This document shows, piece by piece, positions 18,793 through 48,262 of a stretch of 64,000 nt of DNA (its first letter is position 1; each line of letters starts with the position of its first letter). The notes beneath the pieces are model-generated. The model was given only the letters and a program-made list of their open reading frames with translations, did no database searches and was not told the DNA's origin. The position numbers and the translations under genes are program-made. The DNA comes from an uncultured Clostridia bacterium (GTDB taxonomy: Bacteria > Bacillota > Clostridia > Christensenellales > CAG-1252). Location of the stretch: NCBI GenBank assembly GCA_945482995.1, contig CALYRM010000002.1:11355-75354 (forward strand), in the 5' to 3' direction.

Positions 18793-19100
18793 AACAAGGA
18801 TTAGATTCTTCGACTGCGCTTAAGAATGACAAAGCGGATGAGATTTCTCCACTTCGGTCGAAATGACGATTAGTTGTAATGGCTGTACACTTGCCTTGCA
18901 ATGAATCAGTGCTAGTAGTGAGATTCCTCCACGTTGGTCGGAATGACAAACAAGGATAAGGTCCCTCGACTACGCTTTCAGGATGACAGCCCTGCTGTCA
19001 ATTCACCTTCGACTTCGTTTCACTACACTTAAGAATGACAATTGCTATGGCTCAAAATGACATAATGACTCAAAATGACATTTTAGCTCAAAATGATAAA
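18793..19100. repeat. mosaic array of the modular repeat plus a CTCAAAATGA micro-tandem
   Basis: Successive ...aagaatgac / ...gaaatgac / ...ggaatgac / ...aggatgacagccctgctgtc modules, then gctcaaaatgac repeated 3-4 times. Confidence 0.8.
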
Positions 19101-32454: not shown

Positions 32455-32610
32455 CGTTCGCCATATCGACCATCAAAATCGTCATTCCGACCAACGTGGA
32501 GGGTGAATTGACAGCAGGGCTGTCATCCTGAAAGCGTTGTTCGAGGGACCTCATTAGCACCGACTTATTTCAAAGCTTTGTACAGTCACTAATTTGATAA
32601 TTGCACATTT
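32455..32610. repeat. composite copy of the modular repeat, including the GACAGC palindrome module and the terminal module
   Basis: gtcattccgaccaacgtggagggtgaattgacagcagggctgtcatcctgaaagcg...cctcattagcaccgactt... is the reverse complement of the arrangement at 46240-46320. Confidence 0.7.
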
Positions 32611-37017: not shown

Positions 37018-37683
37018 ATGGCAAAAAAAGAAGATTCTCCTATGACTCCCAAAAAACTGTTTATTATAATAGTTGAAATAATTTTGGTGTTTATGTTAGC
37101 ACTTGTTATAGTAGGCTTATTGCAACAGTTCGTAATAGCGCCCATCCGAGTTTCGGGTAGCAGTATGGCTCCTACAATAAGGGACAGTGGCGATAAAGTT
37201 TATGTATATAGGAAAGCAAAAGAATATAATATCGGAGATGTGATAGTATTTTATAAACCGATACAAGGCGAAAATGACGAAAGCCTTAACCCGTCGAGTA
37301 AAAAAACTTCTTTTACCGACTTTTTAAGAGCATTACCGATAGTTGGATCGAGAATTCACGCAAATGAAGCGGATAACGAAGAAACCGGCGGATATAAAGC
37401 TATAATCAAAAGAATAGTCGCTTGTCCCGGCGACACCGTGAGCTTCGTAAACGGTGAGCTTTATGTGAATGGGGACAAAGAAACACGCTTTGCTTATAAA
37501 TTTAATACAGTAGGCGTTGGTGATAACTATCAACACACCATGCAAAAAGACGAATATTTTGTTATGGGCGATAATAGAGGCGATAGTATAGATAGCGAAG
37601 ACTATGGACCGATACATCTAAATATGATTTACGGCAAAGCTGTGCTATTAATCACCGAAGGCGAACCAAAAGTAGACTTCTAA
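37018..37683 (+). CDS. lepB: signal peptidase I
   Basis: VSGSSMAPTI (catalytic Ser box), KRIVACPGD, GDNRGDSIDS. Confidence 0.88.
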   Translation: MAKKEDSPMTPKKLFIIIVEIILVFMLALVIVGLLQQFVIAPIRVSGSSMAPTIRDSGDKVYVYRKAKEYNIGDVIVFYKPIQGENDESLNPSSKKTSFTDFLRALPIVGSRIHANEADNEETGGYKAIIKRIVACPGDTVSFVNGELYVNGDKETRFAYKFNTVGVGDNYQHTMQKDEYFVMGDNRGDSIDSEDYGPIHLNMIYGKAVLLITEGEPKVDF

Positions 37684-37709
37684 AAAAGCCGACGATTGTC
37701 GGCTTTTTA
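37683..37709 (+). terminator. intrinsic terminator
   Basis: aaaaagccgac-gatt-gtcggcttttt. Confidence 0.7.
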
Positions 37710-37746
37710 AGATTAAGCATTAGTCGAAAGAGTTAAATATTGTTAC

Positions 37747-38215
37747 GTCATGTCGACCAACACAAATGTCATTCCGAGCGTAGTCGAGGAATCTAATCAA
37801 ATCGTCATTTCGACCGAAGTGGAGAAATCTCATCCTTGTCTGTCATTCCGAGCCATCCGCACCGTCATTCCGAGCCATCCGCACCGTCATGTCGACCGTA
37901 GTGGAGACATCTCATCCGCTTTGTCATTCCGAGCGTAGTCGAGGAATCTCATCCGCTTTCATCATTCATTACCATCCCACGTCATTCCGAGCGTAGTCGA
38001 GGAATCTCATCCGCTTTGTCATTTCGACCGAAGTGGAGAAATCTAATTAAATCGTCATTCCGAACGTAGTCGAGGAATCTCATCCTTGTTTGTCATTCCG
38101 ACCAACACAAATGTCATTTCGACCGAAGTGGAGAAATCTCATCCGCATCGTCATTCTTAAGCGTAAATCCCTTCACGTTGGTCGGGTTGACTTAGCCCAC
38201 CATACAAATCACGAA
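37747..38215 (+). repeat. mosaic tandem array of GTCATKYCGA modules (long ~37 bp and short ~22 bp)
   Basis: About 14 consecutive modules, for example gtcattccgagcgtagtcgaggaatctcatccgcttt, gtcatttcgaccgaagtggagaaatctcatcc and gtcattccgagccatccgcacc. Confidence 0.9.
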
Positions 38216-38327
38216 GTCCAAAATTGTGCTTTGCATAAGGCTTTGCCTTTTGCTACAACCTTTCAAATTGATGAATCCATTAGAATACAAAAGAGAAGAC
38301 GAATTGTTTGTTAAGAAACAAAAATTT

Positions 38328-39767
38328 ATGGTAACAAGACCGTTGCCAATTATTTTGCTTTTCTTTATTTTTGGCTTGATTGCTTGCTTTTTCTTGTATC
38401 AATACATCATTTGGATATATGTTGGTTTGGCATTGTTGGCGGTAGCAATGTTTTTATTGGGCGCATTCGACAAGAAGTTGCTATTTGCTTGTATTTTTAT
38501 TTTGGTTTTGTCACTTGAAGGGCTTTTATACCTATACTCTTTCAATAAAAAAGACTATTTAAAGGACGGATATTATTCGGGAGAAGCCTATGTCGAATCC
38601 GTACACAGTTCGGGAAAGGTTGTGCTTGAAAACGTTGTTTTAGAGGGTGAAAAACTTAATGGCAAGGTTATTGCAAATTATGCCGACGTAAAAGTGGGAG
38701 ATTACATCAAATTTGCGGGAACGTTATCTACATTTGATTACCACGAGTCATACGGATTGCACCGTATTGCCGGTGGCATATACTATGAAATGGACTTAAG
38801 TTTTTACCGTTTTGAATATACCACGTCCCCATCATTTAGAAATAGAATTATTTTCTTTGTTAAGGATGGTTTGACAAGAGCTGCAGGTGAAACCACCGCA
38901 GATTATTTGGCAAGTATATTGTTTGGTGAATCTGAGTATCTATCCTATGAAATGAAGTCAAGTTTTACTGCAATAGGTGCGGCTCACGTATTCGCAGTAT
39001 CGGGATTGCACATTGGCGTATTAAGCTCGGTTTTGTCATTTCTGTTGAGAAAGCTAAAGCTTTCTAATAATGCGATACCATTTGTAATGCTCCCCATTTT
39101 CGGCTTTTACGCATATCTTTGCGATTTTTCACCATCGGTACTTCGAGCCTCGATTATGTTTTTGACTGCAAGCTTTTTAACAAACGGCAAATTTTGTTCG
39201 GACAAGCCCTCAGTGCTGTGTTTTTCCGCCCTTATATCCTTGATTGCAAAGCCAATATGGATAGGTGATTTAAGTTTTGCTCTTAGCTATGGCGCAATAT
39301 TAGGGATTTATTTATTATATCCAATTATGAAAAAACCGTTTTCCGAACTAGGCAAATTAGGAAAGATAGGAGATGTATTGGCACTCAACCTTTCGGTTAC
39401 AATTTCGTTAATTCCCTTGAGCTGTCTATTCTTTTCAAGTTTTTCACCATTGGCAATGATAGCTAGTTTTTTGATAATACCAATAACGTCTGTCTTATAT
39501 GTTTTAACTCTAATATGCCTGCCACTTATTGCATTATCTTTTCTAATCAAACCGGTTGCGTTAGCTGCCAAATACTTAGTATTATTATCAAGCTTTATAT
39601 CCAAAACGATATCAAACGTCAACGTCCCCATAACTTTAAGAATAACGCCATATTCCCTGCTTTTTTGGTATGCAGGGCTATTTATATTGTCGGAATACAA
39701 TTCACTCTCCCCTCGCAAAAAAGGCTTGTTGGCAATTGGTTTTATCGGACTAACGTTTTTAATTTAA
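38328..39767 (+). CDS. comEC: ComEC/Rec2 family DNA internalisation channel protein (no beta-lactamase-like C-terminal domain evident)
   Basis: Polytopic; competence motif GAAHVFAVSGLHIGVL. The start is uncertain (38226, 38271 or 38328); upstream codons run out of the repeat array. Confidence 0.8.
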   Translation: MVTRPLPIILLFFIFGLIACFFLYQYIIWIYVGLALLAVAMFLLGAFDKKLLFACIFILVLSLEGLLYLYSFNKKDYLKDGYYSGEAYVESVHSSGKVVLENVVLEGEKLNGKVIANYADVKVGDYIKFAGTLSTFDYHESYGLHRIAGGIYYEMDLSFYRFEYTTSPSFRNRIIFFVKDGLTRAAGETTADYLASILFGESEYLSYEMKSSFTAIGAAHVFAVSGLHIGVLSSVLSFLLRKLKLSNNAIPFVMLPIFGFYAYLCDFSPSVLRASIMFLTASFLTNGKFCSDKPSVLCFSALISLIAKPIWIGDLSFALSYGAILGIYLLYPIMKKPFSELGKLGKIGDVLALNLSVTISLIPLSCLFFSSFSPLAMIASFLIIPITSVLYVLTLICLPLIALSFLIKPVALAAKYLVLLSSFISKTISNVNVPITLRITPYSLLFWYAGLFILSEYNSLSPRKKGLLAIGFIGLTFLI

Positions 39768-39773
39768 CTATAA

Positions 39774-40650
39774 TGTCATTTCGACCGAAGTGGAGAAATC
39801 TCATCCGCTTTGTCATTTCGACCGAAGTGGAGAAATCTAATCAAATCGTCATTCCGAGCCATCCAATTCGTCATTTCGACCGAAGTGGAGAAATCTCATC
39901 CTTGTTTGTCATTTCGACCGCAGTGGAGAAATCTCATCCTTGTTTGTCATTTCGACCGTAGTGGAGAAATCTCATCCGCTTTGTCATTCCGATCCATCCG
40001 CTTTGTCATTCCGATCCATCCAATTCGTCATTTCGACCGAAGTGGAGAAATCTAATCCTTGTTTGTCATTTCGACCGAAGTGGAGAAATCTCGTCCGCTT
40101 TGTCATTCCGATCCATCCAATTCGTCATTCCGAGCGAAGTCGAGGAATCTCATCCGCTTAGTCATTCCGAGCCATCCGTTTTGTCATTCTGACCAATACA
40201 AATGTCATTCCGAGCGCAGTCGAGGAATCTCATCCTTGTTCGTCATGTCGACCGAAGTGGAGAAATCTCCCTACTAGCACAAAAACCCTGTGAAACAGAC
40301 AAACAATCGTAATGTATAATTACACATTATTAAAAAGGTTCTATTTTTATTGAACGCTTAAGTTTTATTCACAAGAATGCTTTTGTACCCCATTTTAGAG
40401 ATCCCTCCACGTTGGTCGGGATGACTTAGCCCACCGTCATTCCGAGCCATCCAATTCGTCATTCCGAGCGAAGTGGAGAAATCTCATCCACATCGTCATT
40501 CTGAGCCATCCAATTCGTCATTCCGACCAACACAAACGTCATTTCGACCGAAGTGGAGAAATCTCATCCTTATTCCGTCATTCCGAGCAAAGTCGAGGAA
40601 TCTCATCCTTATTCCGTCATTCCGACCGAAGTCGAGGGATAACAAATTAC
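39774..40650 (+). repeat. two mosaic arrays of the same modules, separated by a ~95-bp element
   Basis: 16 modules are readable in 39774-40270 and about 8 more in 40383-40645. Inverted modules and a terminal module (ctccctactagcac) lie at the junctions. Confidence 0.9.
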
Positions 40651-41446: not shown

Positions 41447-41780
41447 TGATTAGATTCTTCGACAAGCTCAGAATGACATTAGTAGGTTAGTCGTTCTCTA
41501 CCGATTTTGTTGACTCTTCCGCTGCGTTATCGTCACAAGGATGAGATTCTTCGACAAGCTCAGAATGACTATGCAGATGAGATTTCTCCACTTCGGTCGA
41601 AATGACGATTTGATTAGATTCTTCGACAGGCTCAGAATGACAAGGCGGATTAGATTCCTCGACTTCGCTCGGAATGACATTTGGATTTAGATCCTTACGA
41701 CTACGCTTCGCTTCGCTCAGGATGACATTATGGCTCGGAATGACGATGTGGCGAGATTCTTCGGCTTCGCTCAAACTGAC
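41447..41780 (-). repeat. array of modular repeats overlapping the 3' end of sipW
   Basis: gattcttcgacaagctcagaatgac, gatttctccacttcggtcgaaatgac, gattcctcgacttcgctcggaatgac, and others. Confidence 0.85.
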
Positions 41781-42464
41781 GGTATTTGATTGGTCGGGTT
41801 CTTTTTGTGCTTCGTTTTGTTTCTTATTGGAAGTCTTAGCGGACTCGTTCTCGGGTTTCTTTTTAAGGTAATTCAATATTAGCGAAGTAATGGCTATAAT
41901 TGTCAAGCATGCAATCAATGCAATTATTCCATAACTGCTTTTGAAAAATTTGACTACTACTCCAAACTGTCCCATTGAGAAACAATAAATACCTGTGATA
42001 TCCTCTATTTTTTTTGGTGAATCACTTTTGGGTGCAGCGTCACCACGAGTAACGTACAATTTTTCGCCTGTAACTGCATCATACTTTATTTCAACCACAC
42101 GATGAATGACCGTTTCGTTTCCTATCTTAAAGGTTACTATATCATATACGTCAGGCTCTTCGCCGTCCTTTAACCGTCTTGTAAACACAAAATCATTGAT
42201 TTTAAATTGTTCGTCGTGTCCCTCTAAAAATTCCTTGTAATCTTCATATTTAAAGGACATACTTCCCGATTTAACAATCATTCCTCTATAACCAAAGAAC
42301 GGATAAATATCCTTTCCCGAAATCTTTTCTACCAAGGAAAAAATCAATACGGCAATAAAGATAACCATAATGAGATAGAATATTACATTTAGTATAATTC
42401 TACCCACACTTTTTTTCTTTTTATTTTCCGATTTTTTATTCCCGTATTGACTTTGTTTTTCCAT
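41487..42464 (-). CDS. sipW: SipW-type (archaeal/ER-type) signal peptidase I with a repeat-encoded C-terminal tail
   Basis: N-terminal TM; KSGSMSF (Ser box), VIHRVV (His box), TRGDAAPKSD; a second TM. The last ~90 aa are translated from repeat modules. Confidence 0.7.
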   Translation of the reverse strand: MEKQSQYGNKKSENKKKKSVGRIILNVIFYLIMVIFIAVLIFSLVEKISGKDIYPFFGYRGMIVKSGSMSFKYEDYKEFLEGHDEQFKINDFVFTRRLKDGEEPDVYDIVTFKIGNETVIHRVVEIKYDAVTGEKLYVTRGDAAPKSDSPKKIEDITGIYCFSMGQFGVVVKFFKSSYGIIALIACLTIIAITSLILNYLKKKPENESAKTSNKKQNEAQKEPDQSNTVSLSEAEESRHIVIPSHNVILSEAKRSRKDLNPNVIPSEVEESNPPCHSEPVEESNQIVISTEVEKSHLHSHSELVEESHPCDDNAAEESTKSVEND

Positions 42465-46239: not shown

Positions 46240-46660
46240 CAAAGAGTCGGTGCTAATGAGGTCCCTCGAACAACGCTTTCAGGATGACAGCAGAGCTGTC
46301 AATTCACCCTCCACGTTGGTCGGAATGACAAAGTGGATGAGATTCCTCGACTTCGTTGCACTTCGCTCGGAATGACATTTTTGGTCGGAATGACGAATTG
46401 GATGGCTCGGAATGACATTTTTGGTCGGAATGACAAAGCGGATGAGATGTCTCGACTACGCTCGACATGACAAAGCGGATGAGATGTCTCGACTTCGTTG
46501 CACAACGCTTAAGAATGACAATTAGTTGTAATGGCTGTATATCTGCTTCGCAAGAAGTCGGTGCTAGTAGGGAGATGTCTCGACTACGCTCGACATGACG
46601 GAACAAGGATAGTTCCTTTGGCTGAGCTCAGGATGACAGCCCTACAGCTGTCACTTCACC
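46240..46660 (-). repeat. composite repeat array: modules, GACAGC palindromes and terminal modules
   Basis: Runs from gagtcggtgctaatgaggtccctcgaac...aggatgacagcagagctgtcaattcaccc to ttagttgtaatggctgtatatctgc...gtgctagtagggag and ggatgacagccctacagctgtcacttcacc. Confidence 0.85.
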
Positions 46661-48169: not shown

Positions 48170-48262
48170 GGAGATTCCTCGACTGCGCTCGGAATGACAT
48201 TTCCGCAGCGGAATGACATTTCCACGACGGGATGAAATTTCCACGGCAGGATGACGAAAAAA
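48170..48262. repeat. short array of repeat modules
   Basis: ggagattcctcgactgcgctcggaatgacatttccgcagcggaatgacatttccacgacgggatgaaatttccacggcaggatgac. Confidence 0.75.

Follow-up and report, generated by a model that had tools for sequence, protein, structure and literature searches.

A covarying hairpin with a tandem G·A core, arrayed around comEC in a Clostridia genome, as a probable variant of the hairpins cut by Ssn nucleases

What maintains the small hairpins that are repeated head to tail between lepB and a comEC-type gene in an uncultured Clostridia bacterium (Christensenellales, CAG-1252; assembly GCA_945482995.1), and which molecule would recognise them? The question is raised by positions 37747-38215 of a 64,000-nt stretch of contig CALYRM010000002.1 (hereafter the window), in which a 26-nt hairpin module forms an array that we call array A. 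An earlier note had described three mutually compensated versions of the outer stem of this module and had proposed a selected secondary structure, acting either as a DNA or RNA hairpin recognised by a transposition or processing protein or as an RNA stability or termination element. We searched the complete genome, i.e. a metagenome-assembled genome (MAG) of 2.12 Mb on 163 contigs, 94% complete and with a smallest contig of 2.6 kb. Taken together, the best explanation, and in our opinion a likely one, is that the modules represent a variant with a G·A clamp of the single-stranded DNA (ssDNA) hairpins known as NTS in Neisseria and as Ssn-related motifs (SRM), which are cut by Ssn GIY-YIG nucleases.

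Genome-wide, the modules were collected with an anchor that consists only of GTCA, G9-A10, C12, G16-T17 and G19-A20, which makes these bases invariant by design and leaves all stem positions free except A4, C12 and G16. The resulting consensus is YGTC-A-T-N-N-C-GA-N-C-NNN-G-T-N-GA-G-N-N-A-T-C. Read 5' to 3' on the strand with GTCA, the Y-G-T-C tag is followed by the pairs A4-T25 and T5-A24 and by three Watson-Crick pairs of free identity, in which the 5' arm is rich in pyrimidines (T, C or G at position 6, C or T at positions 7 and 8). Further inwards, the invariant tandem G·A/A·G mismatch at 9-20 and 10-19 and a pair 11-18, which is either G-C or C-G, lead to C12-G16, which closes a GNA or ANC triloop; T17 is bulged and C26 stands directly after the stem. 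Although not fixed by the anchor, position -1 is a pyrimidine in 97% of the modules (T 60%, C 37%), and C at position 26, likewise not required, and T at position 27 are each found in 93%. The triloop is GNA in 72% and ANC in 22% of the modules and varies freely (GTA 152, GAA 141, AAC 99, GCA 75). Its positions 13 and 15 covary without Watson-Crick pairing (G..A in 371 modules, A..C in 115; 0.62 bit), an indication that an A·C pair can stand in for the sheared G·A that closes the triloop. The same 5' arm is shared by additional classes, among them a 25-nt class with a two-base loop (GAGC-TT-GTCGA), a 36-nt class with the apex GCGAAGCGTAGCGTA, which consists of tandem GCGNAGC heptamers (perfect GCGAAGC and GCGTAGC), modules with an extra apical stem, and half-units.

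The anchor detected 518 modules in the genome, compared to 0.6 expected by chance, and a pattern with the variable positions left open found 30 modules in the window and none in 100 shuffles of it. Pairing is widespread at all positions of free identity: pair 6-23 is Watson-Crick in 89% of the 518 modules (T-A 212, G-C 132, C-G 116), pair 7-22 in 94% (C-G 280, T-A 209), pair 8-21 in 95% (C-G 430, T-A 60) and pair 11-18 in 94% (G-C 269, C-G 219). The three highest mutual-information values over the module and its flanks all belong to predicted base pairs, namely 6-23 (1.05 bit), 11-18 (0.85 bit) and 7-22 (0.73 bit), while pair 8-21 reaches 0.37 bit as compared to 0.07 bit for the neighbouring positions 8 and 7. 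The earlier note had reasoned that statistically supported covariation would be lost if mismatched arms were as common as matched ones. In fact, matched outer arms occur in 426 of the 518 modules, whereas 96.7 are expected under free combination and the maximum of 2000 permutations was 125. When each of the 150 distinct sequences was counted only once, 87.9% of the paired cells were filled by pairs (74.4 +/- 0.7% in shuffles), the number of double-sided changes was 173 (59 +/- 12 in shuffles) and the covariation score was 0.437 versus 0.193, values that none of 500 shuffles attained. Controls in which the pairing register was slid gave 25-50% paired positions. Furthermore, all five tested pairs (5-8 with 21-24, and 11-18) are intact in 79% of the modules. 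The four commonest outer stems are each found with both inner pair types, hence the linkage tracks the hairpin and not the descent of subfamilies; position 11 is nearly independent of the outer stem (at most 0.17 bit with any of its positions).

These results substantiate the view that compensatory changes maintain a hairpin, and the three stem versions noticed in array A are present as described (Table 1). The same is true for the two reverse-strand copies of the ATGTC/GACAT version in the 46.4-kb region, which differ from the module at 37886 only in pair 11-18, and for the mismatched exception ATGTC/GAAAT, which lies a few bases away from the 40239-40262 given before. The loop-proximal bases, which had been regarded as conserved, turned out to be so only in part, because position 11 pairs with 18 and switches between G-C and C-G (gaGc..gtCga versus gaCc..gtGga), i.e. 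it belongs to a further compensated pair. The CTCATCC tail, which had likewise been regarded as conserved, is common without being invariant, as variants such as TCTAATCAAATC and others occur.

The number of units is much higher when partial copies are included. We counted 998 5' arms in the genome versus 23 in a shuffled genome, which makes approximately 1,000 units. They are distributed over 340 loci with a combined length of 48.6 kb (2.3% of the genome), and the unit spacing peaks at 18-22, 36-39 and 47-51 nt. A combined pattern for the 25- and 26-nt classes matched 472 modules, by far the most in the order, where the next genome has 41. Neighbouring units share the stem type in only 24% of cases (11% expected), therefore the arrays are mosaics and not simple tandem duplications; most of them are direct repeats, and both orientations are found in 27 of 131 multi-unit arrays. 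Array A is identical in two assemblies of the European Nucleotide Archive from separate samples (ERZ11474004 and ERZ11474005, 100% identity across 6.7 kb), hence it is not an assembly artefact. Units of 18-22 nt are frequent genome-wide (approximately 100 such spacings). In the half-units of the window (37842-37885, 39848, 39983-40026, 40102, 40161, 40436, 40495 and others) the 5' arm GTCATNNCGANC is always kept, after which the sequence jumps to the CATCC tail or to AACACAAAT, so that the truncation is one-sided.

In a scan of one genome per species, the 26-mer pattern was found in Verrucomicrobiota, Acidobacteriota, Bacteroidota, Clostridia, the Candidate Phyla Radiation (CPR), Chloroflexota, Planctomycetota, Proteobacteria and others, often as inverted pairs, and dozens of phyla share this hairpin together with its series of stem variants. 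There, the three free pairs are Watson-Crick in 95-99%, and position -1 is T in 73% and C in 17%. Since the stem variants CC/GG, TC/GA, TT/AA, GT/AC and CT/AG recur across phyla, much of the apparent covariation seems to represent an old allelic series common to the family and not compensation that arose within array A.

A literature search with the literal module sequence gave no match. The Ssn/SRM system, described in Nat Commun (Chenal et al., 2025; PMC11893778), provides the closest known counterpart. SsnA is a 94-aa single-domain GIY-YIG nuclease; NmSsnA binds the Neisseria NTS hairpin CGTCATTCCCGCGMAVGCGGGAATCYRG as ssDNA only and on one strand only, and the cut site is situated a few nucleotides upstream of the motif (PMC11893778). 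Cutting depends on the three bases that precede the palindrome, binding on the C just 3' of it, which is the most critical base for binding by NmSsnA, and ssn genes are typically flanked by NTS/SRM motifs (PMC11893778). The modules share with NTS the Y-GTC tag directly 5' of a short palindrome and the C directly 3' (the NTS frame being CGTC-palindrome-C), and ATTCC/GGAAT, the consensus outer stem of the modules, likewise forms the two ends of the Neisseria NTS (CGTCATTCCC...GGGAATC). As in Neisseria, hundreds of copies exist, which are mostly intergenic and clustered near particular genes. The modules differ from NTS/SRM in several respects. Their stem contains the invariant tandem G·A/A·G mismatch and ends in a C-GNA-G triloop with T17 bulged out, this single genome holds six different outer stems together with two inner pairs, and the copies are lined up in long mosaic arrays of one orientation, half-units among them. 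A related resemblance concerns the dRS3/NIME repeats of Neisseria, where arrays of 20-26-nt palindromes (ATTCCC-N8-GGGAAT) alternate with short linker families and many of them bracket specific genes; they belong to another organism, however, the linkers here are only 10-13 nt long and the inner part of the hairpin differs.

The most direct connection to a nuclease comes from relatives, in which the hairpins flank a gene for a single-domain GIY-YIG protein of approximately 95 aa and co-occur with it. In five genomes of the same genus or family, GIY-YIG genes encoding 94-131 aa are located 16-80 nt from modules, and the same adjacency of a small GIY-YIG gene (16-80 nt) exists on a Kiritimatiellae and a Flavobacteriales contig. 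Five of these small proteins were scanned and match PF01541 with E values of 2e-11 to 9e-19 as their single domain; no matching solved structure was found for the small GIY-YIG proteins of the relatives. One of the five genomes (G015) displays the layout module(+) - ssn - module(-), with GTCATCCCGACCGAAGTGGAGGGATC 34 nt upstream of ssn, and this exact 26-mer is found 6 times in the genome studied here. In a sample of 150 genomes of the order, the Ssn clade (E <= 1e-30) was detected in 4 of 4 other genomes with at least three modules versus 7 of 146 without modules (Fisher p ~2e-5). Hence, among the functions that had been offered for the hairpin, a DNA structure recognised by a processing protein fits best, since the same hairpin flanks Ssn-type genes in relatives.

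The following mechanism may be proposed. Wherever DNA becomes single-stranded, as on the lagging-strand template, in incoming transforming DNA or in repair intermediates, the GTCA strand would fold, and a single-domain Ssn GIY-YIG nuclease of approximately 95 aa would bind the folded strand and nick it a few nucleotides 5' of the tag. Such a nuclease would read the invariant bases and the shape and would require only pairing at the variable stem positions, which would explain why these change in a compensated fashion. In this genome the units have accumulated as one-orientation mosaic arrays, and the organism would have, or would recently have had, an enzyme of this type.

Several observations weigh against the assignment to the Ssn system. 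The published SRM pattern HGTCWYN(0-2)YYVSBRHN(0-5)WNVSBRGN(0-2)RNCYNB matches NTS but none of four representative modules, because the tandem G·A interrupts the stem, and over the whole genome it gave 2 matches unrelated to modules, compared to 0-6 in shuffles. Moreover, the activity of NmSsnA was abolished when the NTS stem sequence was altered with the structure kept (PMC11893778), therefore the six coexisting stems would need either a shape-reading enzyme or several enzymes. Finally, neither a query with an Ssn of the same family nor a 9-row profile nor a tblastn panel at relaxed settings detected an Ssn-type gene or fragment in this assembly, and a search of this genome with PF01541 returned only UvrC and two larger proteins without flanking modules.

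The last point has to be seen in relation to the quality of the assembly. The repeats are a main cause of its fragmentation: 66 of 326 contig ends (20%) have a repeat unit no more than 150 nt away, compared to 6% of the genome. In relatives, ssn is placed on a 1.7-kb contig (G015) or, in two further genomes, at contig ends. Considering also the 94% completeness and the 2.6-kb smallest contig, the absence of ssn is not proven and carries little weight, and the nuclease gene is possibly located on a short unbinned contig. It appears unlikely to us that the organism is truly without Ssn and nevertheless carries G·A-clamp hairpins at the highest density known (approximately 1,000 units, 2.3% of the genome, approximately 80% of them perfectly paired). 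If that were true, the hairpins would have been maintained and expanded into mosaic arrays without a cognate enzyme, the candidate drivers being a so far undescribed protein that reads their shape, or else slippage and template switching to which ultra-stable GNA mini-hairpins would give rise, and the arrays around comEC could act directly on ssDNA transactions, e.g. transformation or replication.

The alternative that the modules are RNA-level elements, i.e. transcribed in 3' or 5' untranslated regions as terminators, stability hairpins or protein-binding RNA motifs, seems improbable. It is attractive in view of the orientation of the arrays, since between co-directional genes 75 are sense and 22 antisense (binomial p = 6e-8) and for 116 of the 160 arrays that could be classified the gene upstream is sense; in addition, tandem G·A mismatches are known in structured RNAs, too. 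However, this bias fits transcription or placement on the lagging-strand template alike, and the two are inseparable here because GC skew follows gene orientation on the 163 contigs. The predicted hairpins are marginal, with minimum free energies of -1.6 to -3.5 kcal/mol as DNA and -5 to -8 kcal/mol as RNA and z-scores of -1.0 to +0.4 in nearest-neighbour folding. We do not read these z-scores against a structure, because nearest-neighbour models miss GNA mini-hairpins and tandem G·A; the stability of the mini-hairpin lies outside such models (PMC13037366). No T-run follows the stem, the tail being TCTCATCC, and a terminator scan remained at background, whereas a canonical terminator that is matched by terminator-like small RNA models is already present between the lepB stop and array A. 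The modules furthermore gave no relevant Rfam match at gathering or relaxed thresholds. The terminator or stability function suggested for the hairpin before is thus the part of the earlier proposal that found no support.

The chemistry of the loop argues in the same direction. A GNA triloop closed by C-G is known as a mini-hairpin and melts at 70-76 C in DNA but at 39 C in RNA (PMC13037366), and the enzyme family that the hairpins flank does not bind RNA (PMC11893778). Like the DNA mini-hairpins d(GCGNAGC) studied by Hirao and colleagues (reviewed in PMC13037366), the modules have a GNA triloop that contains a sheared G·A and is closed by C-G, and the 36-nt class contains the perfect heptamers; different from them, the closing pairs of the 26-nt class are separated by the bulged T and 22% of the loops are ANC. 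The G·A mismatches would correspond to C·T/T·C pyrimidine mismatches on the complementary strand. Because of the marginal folds, the lack of a T-run, the terminator already placed after lepB, the DNA-type GNA triloop and the strand-asymmetric G·A, the evidence favours a strand-specific ssDNA structure, as would be expected for an Ssn substrate.

Comparably improbable is the assumption that the modules are orphan relics or self-propagating structures, in which the nuclease is gone and pairing is kept by non-selective processes such as gene conversion between the approximately 1,000 copies, slippage at mini-hairpins of extreme stability or the correction of quasi-palindromes on an intrastrand template. 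It would agree with the missing ssn in an assembly whose four module-bearing counterparts in the order sample all possess it, although the limits of that absence discussed above apply here as well. The two chimeric modules of the window (at 40242 and 40458) and the elevated sharing of stem types among neighbours point to local recombination or duplication, and the tandem GCGAAGC/GCGTAGC heptamers of the long class resemble slippage products. On the other hand, the five tested pairs have remained intact in most modules while the loops vary freely, and the flip from G-C to C-G at pair 11-18 takes two transversions without a wobble intermediate, yet both forms occur on four outer stems.

Similarly little credit can be given to a REP/BIME-like system with another enzyme, be it a RAYT/HUH transposase, an IS110 recombinase or an undescribed protein, with a merely convergent likeness to SRM. 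REP and BIME elements associated with RAYT (TnpA-REP) are likewise short intergenic palindromes with hundreds of copies in mosaic clusters, a small nuclease whose gene lies between two copies is believed to recognise them as ssDNA hairpins, and the arrays described here resemble BIMEs. Such a system would also be compatible with the missing ssn and with the one Y1 transposase gene of this genome (C31:12643-12999). But this sole Y1 gene (PF01797) has the features of a classical IS200 TnpA and no module within 5 kb, no RAYT and no IS110 DEDD domain are found in the genome, and a search for a recurring gene between inverted modules in this genome yielded only unrelated housekeeping open reading frames (ORFs). 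The tag is YGTC here and GTAG in REP, the enzyme consistently encoded next to the hairpin in relatives is a small GIY-YIG and not an HUH/Y1 protein, and direct repeats predominate over inverted REPIN doublets. The Y1 gene, which lies outside the window, is of the IS200 type and has flanking hairpins of its own.

A guide array of the CRISPR or TIGR-Tas kind or a translated peptide repeat, which the regular 36-39-nt period and an ORF running through array C (41487-42464, minus strand) might bring to mind, deserves hardly any credence: as a guide array it is refuted by the dispersion of the units over 340 loci and the lack of spacer diversity (the spacers being a handful of recurring linkers), no Nop-domain (Tas) protein is encoded in the genome, and a peptide repeat is contradicted by 37- and 38-nt periods that break the reading frame and by arrays in both orientations relative to genes.

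Table 1. Repeat units and neighbouring features in the window (positions of the 64,000-nt stretch)
Feature	Position	Strand	Description
Module pair	18842-18947	-	
Fused module	32481-32506	+	3' arm swapped for GGGTGAATTGACAGC..., fusion with another small palindrome
lepB	37018-37683	+	Gene of signal peptidase I (Peptidase_S26), next to array A on its upstream side
Canonical terminator hairpin	37684-37710	+	GCCGAC-GATT-GTCGGC, then T-run; directly after the lepB stop, upstream of array A
Array A	37747-38171	+	13 head-to-tail units, all opening YGTCAT: 8 full 26-nt hairpin modules, 4 half-units of 21-22 nt, degenerate final unit at 38150
Module	37768-37793	+	Outer stem ATTCC/GGAAT, inner pair G-C, loop GTA
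Module	37804-37829	+	Outer stem ATTTC/GAAAT, inner pair C-G, loop GAA
Two identical 22-nt half-units	37842-37885	+	GTCATTCCGAGC+CATCCGCACC; each is the 5' arm fused straight to the tail
Module	37886-37911	+	Outer stem ATGTC/GACAT, inner pair C-G, loop GTA
comEC-type gene	38226-39767	+	Competence channel; bracketed by arrays A and B, both in comEC orientation
Array B	39775-40641	+	27 plus-strand units, the first 16 (to 40242) being the genome's largest unit cluster; one minus-strand module inside (40400-40425)
Mismatched chimera	40242-40267	+	5' arm ATGTC with 3' arm GAAAT
Second chimera	40458-40483	+	TTCC/GAGC 5' half with GTGG/AGAAAT 3' half; two pairs broken
Array C	41452-41744	-	25-nt (loop TTG/CTG), 26-nt and 36-nt (GCGAAGCGAAGCGTA) modules mixed; within the 3' end of ORF 41487-42464
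Array D	46304-46637	-	Holds both reverse-strand ATGTC/GACAT modules (46446-46471 and 46574-46599)
Single module	48173-48198	-	

The genes of the window are ordinary chromosomal genes; one of them, comEC, is bracketed by two of the five largest unit clusters of the genome (12 and 16 units). Arrays A and B thereby form around comEC the repeat-gene-repeat layout of the Neisseria NTS, which has been linked there to reduced transformation of the enclosed gene (Chenal et al., 2025; PMC11893778). Downstream of lepB, a comparison within the genus showed that synteny is not conserved; the contig of the closest relative ends 73 nt after lepB.

Two additional observations concern the surroundings of the modules. 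At 32481-32535 and at 46275-46329 (minus strand) the 3' arm is swapped for GGGTGAATTGACAGC-N3-5-GCTGTCAT. This element is a 7-bp palindrome, TGACAGC/GCTGTCA, whose 3' arm provides the TGTCAT tag of the following module; it represents a second small repeat fused to the module family, and the continuation ATTGACA is found after 19 modules genome-wide. The ORF at 41487-42464 encodes 325 aa without a Pfam match, and approximately 85 codons at its 3' end are made up of array C (...VIPSHNVILSEAKRS...VIPSEVEES...VISTEVEKS...). Through these repeats the C-terminus of this protein may have been lengthened or exchanged, or a spurious extension may have resulted.

In practice, these arrays fragment short-read assemblies and yield spurious ORFs. 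Furthermore, the published SRM search motif misses the G·A-clamp hairpin, although this hairpin spans many bacterial phyla. The approximately 1,000 units of this genome amount to a natural mutagenesis table, which separates the invariant positions from those where only pairing matters and is usable for the design of Ssn substrates and for a better SRM detector. The invariant positions comprise the tag, the A-T and T-A pairs at the foot of the stem, the tandem G·A mismatch, the closing C-G pair together with the bulged T, and the C on the 3' side. Finally, the genome offers a test case for the dependence of such repeats on a resident nuclease.

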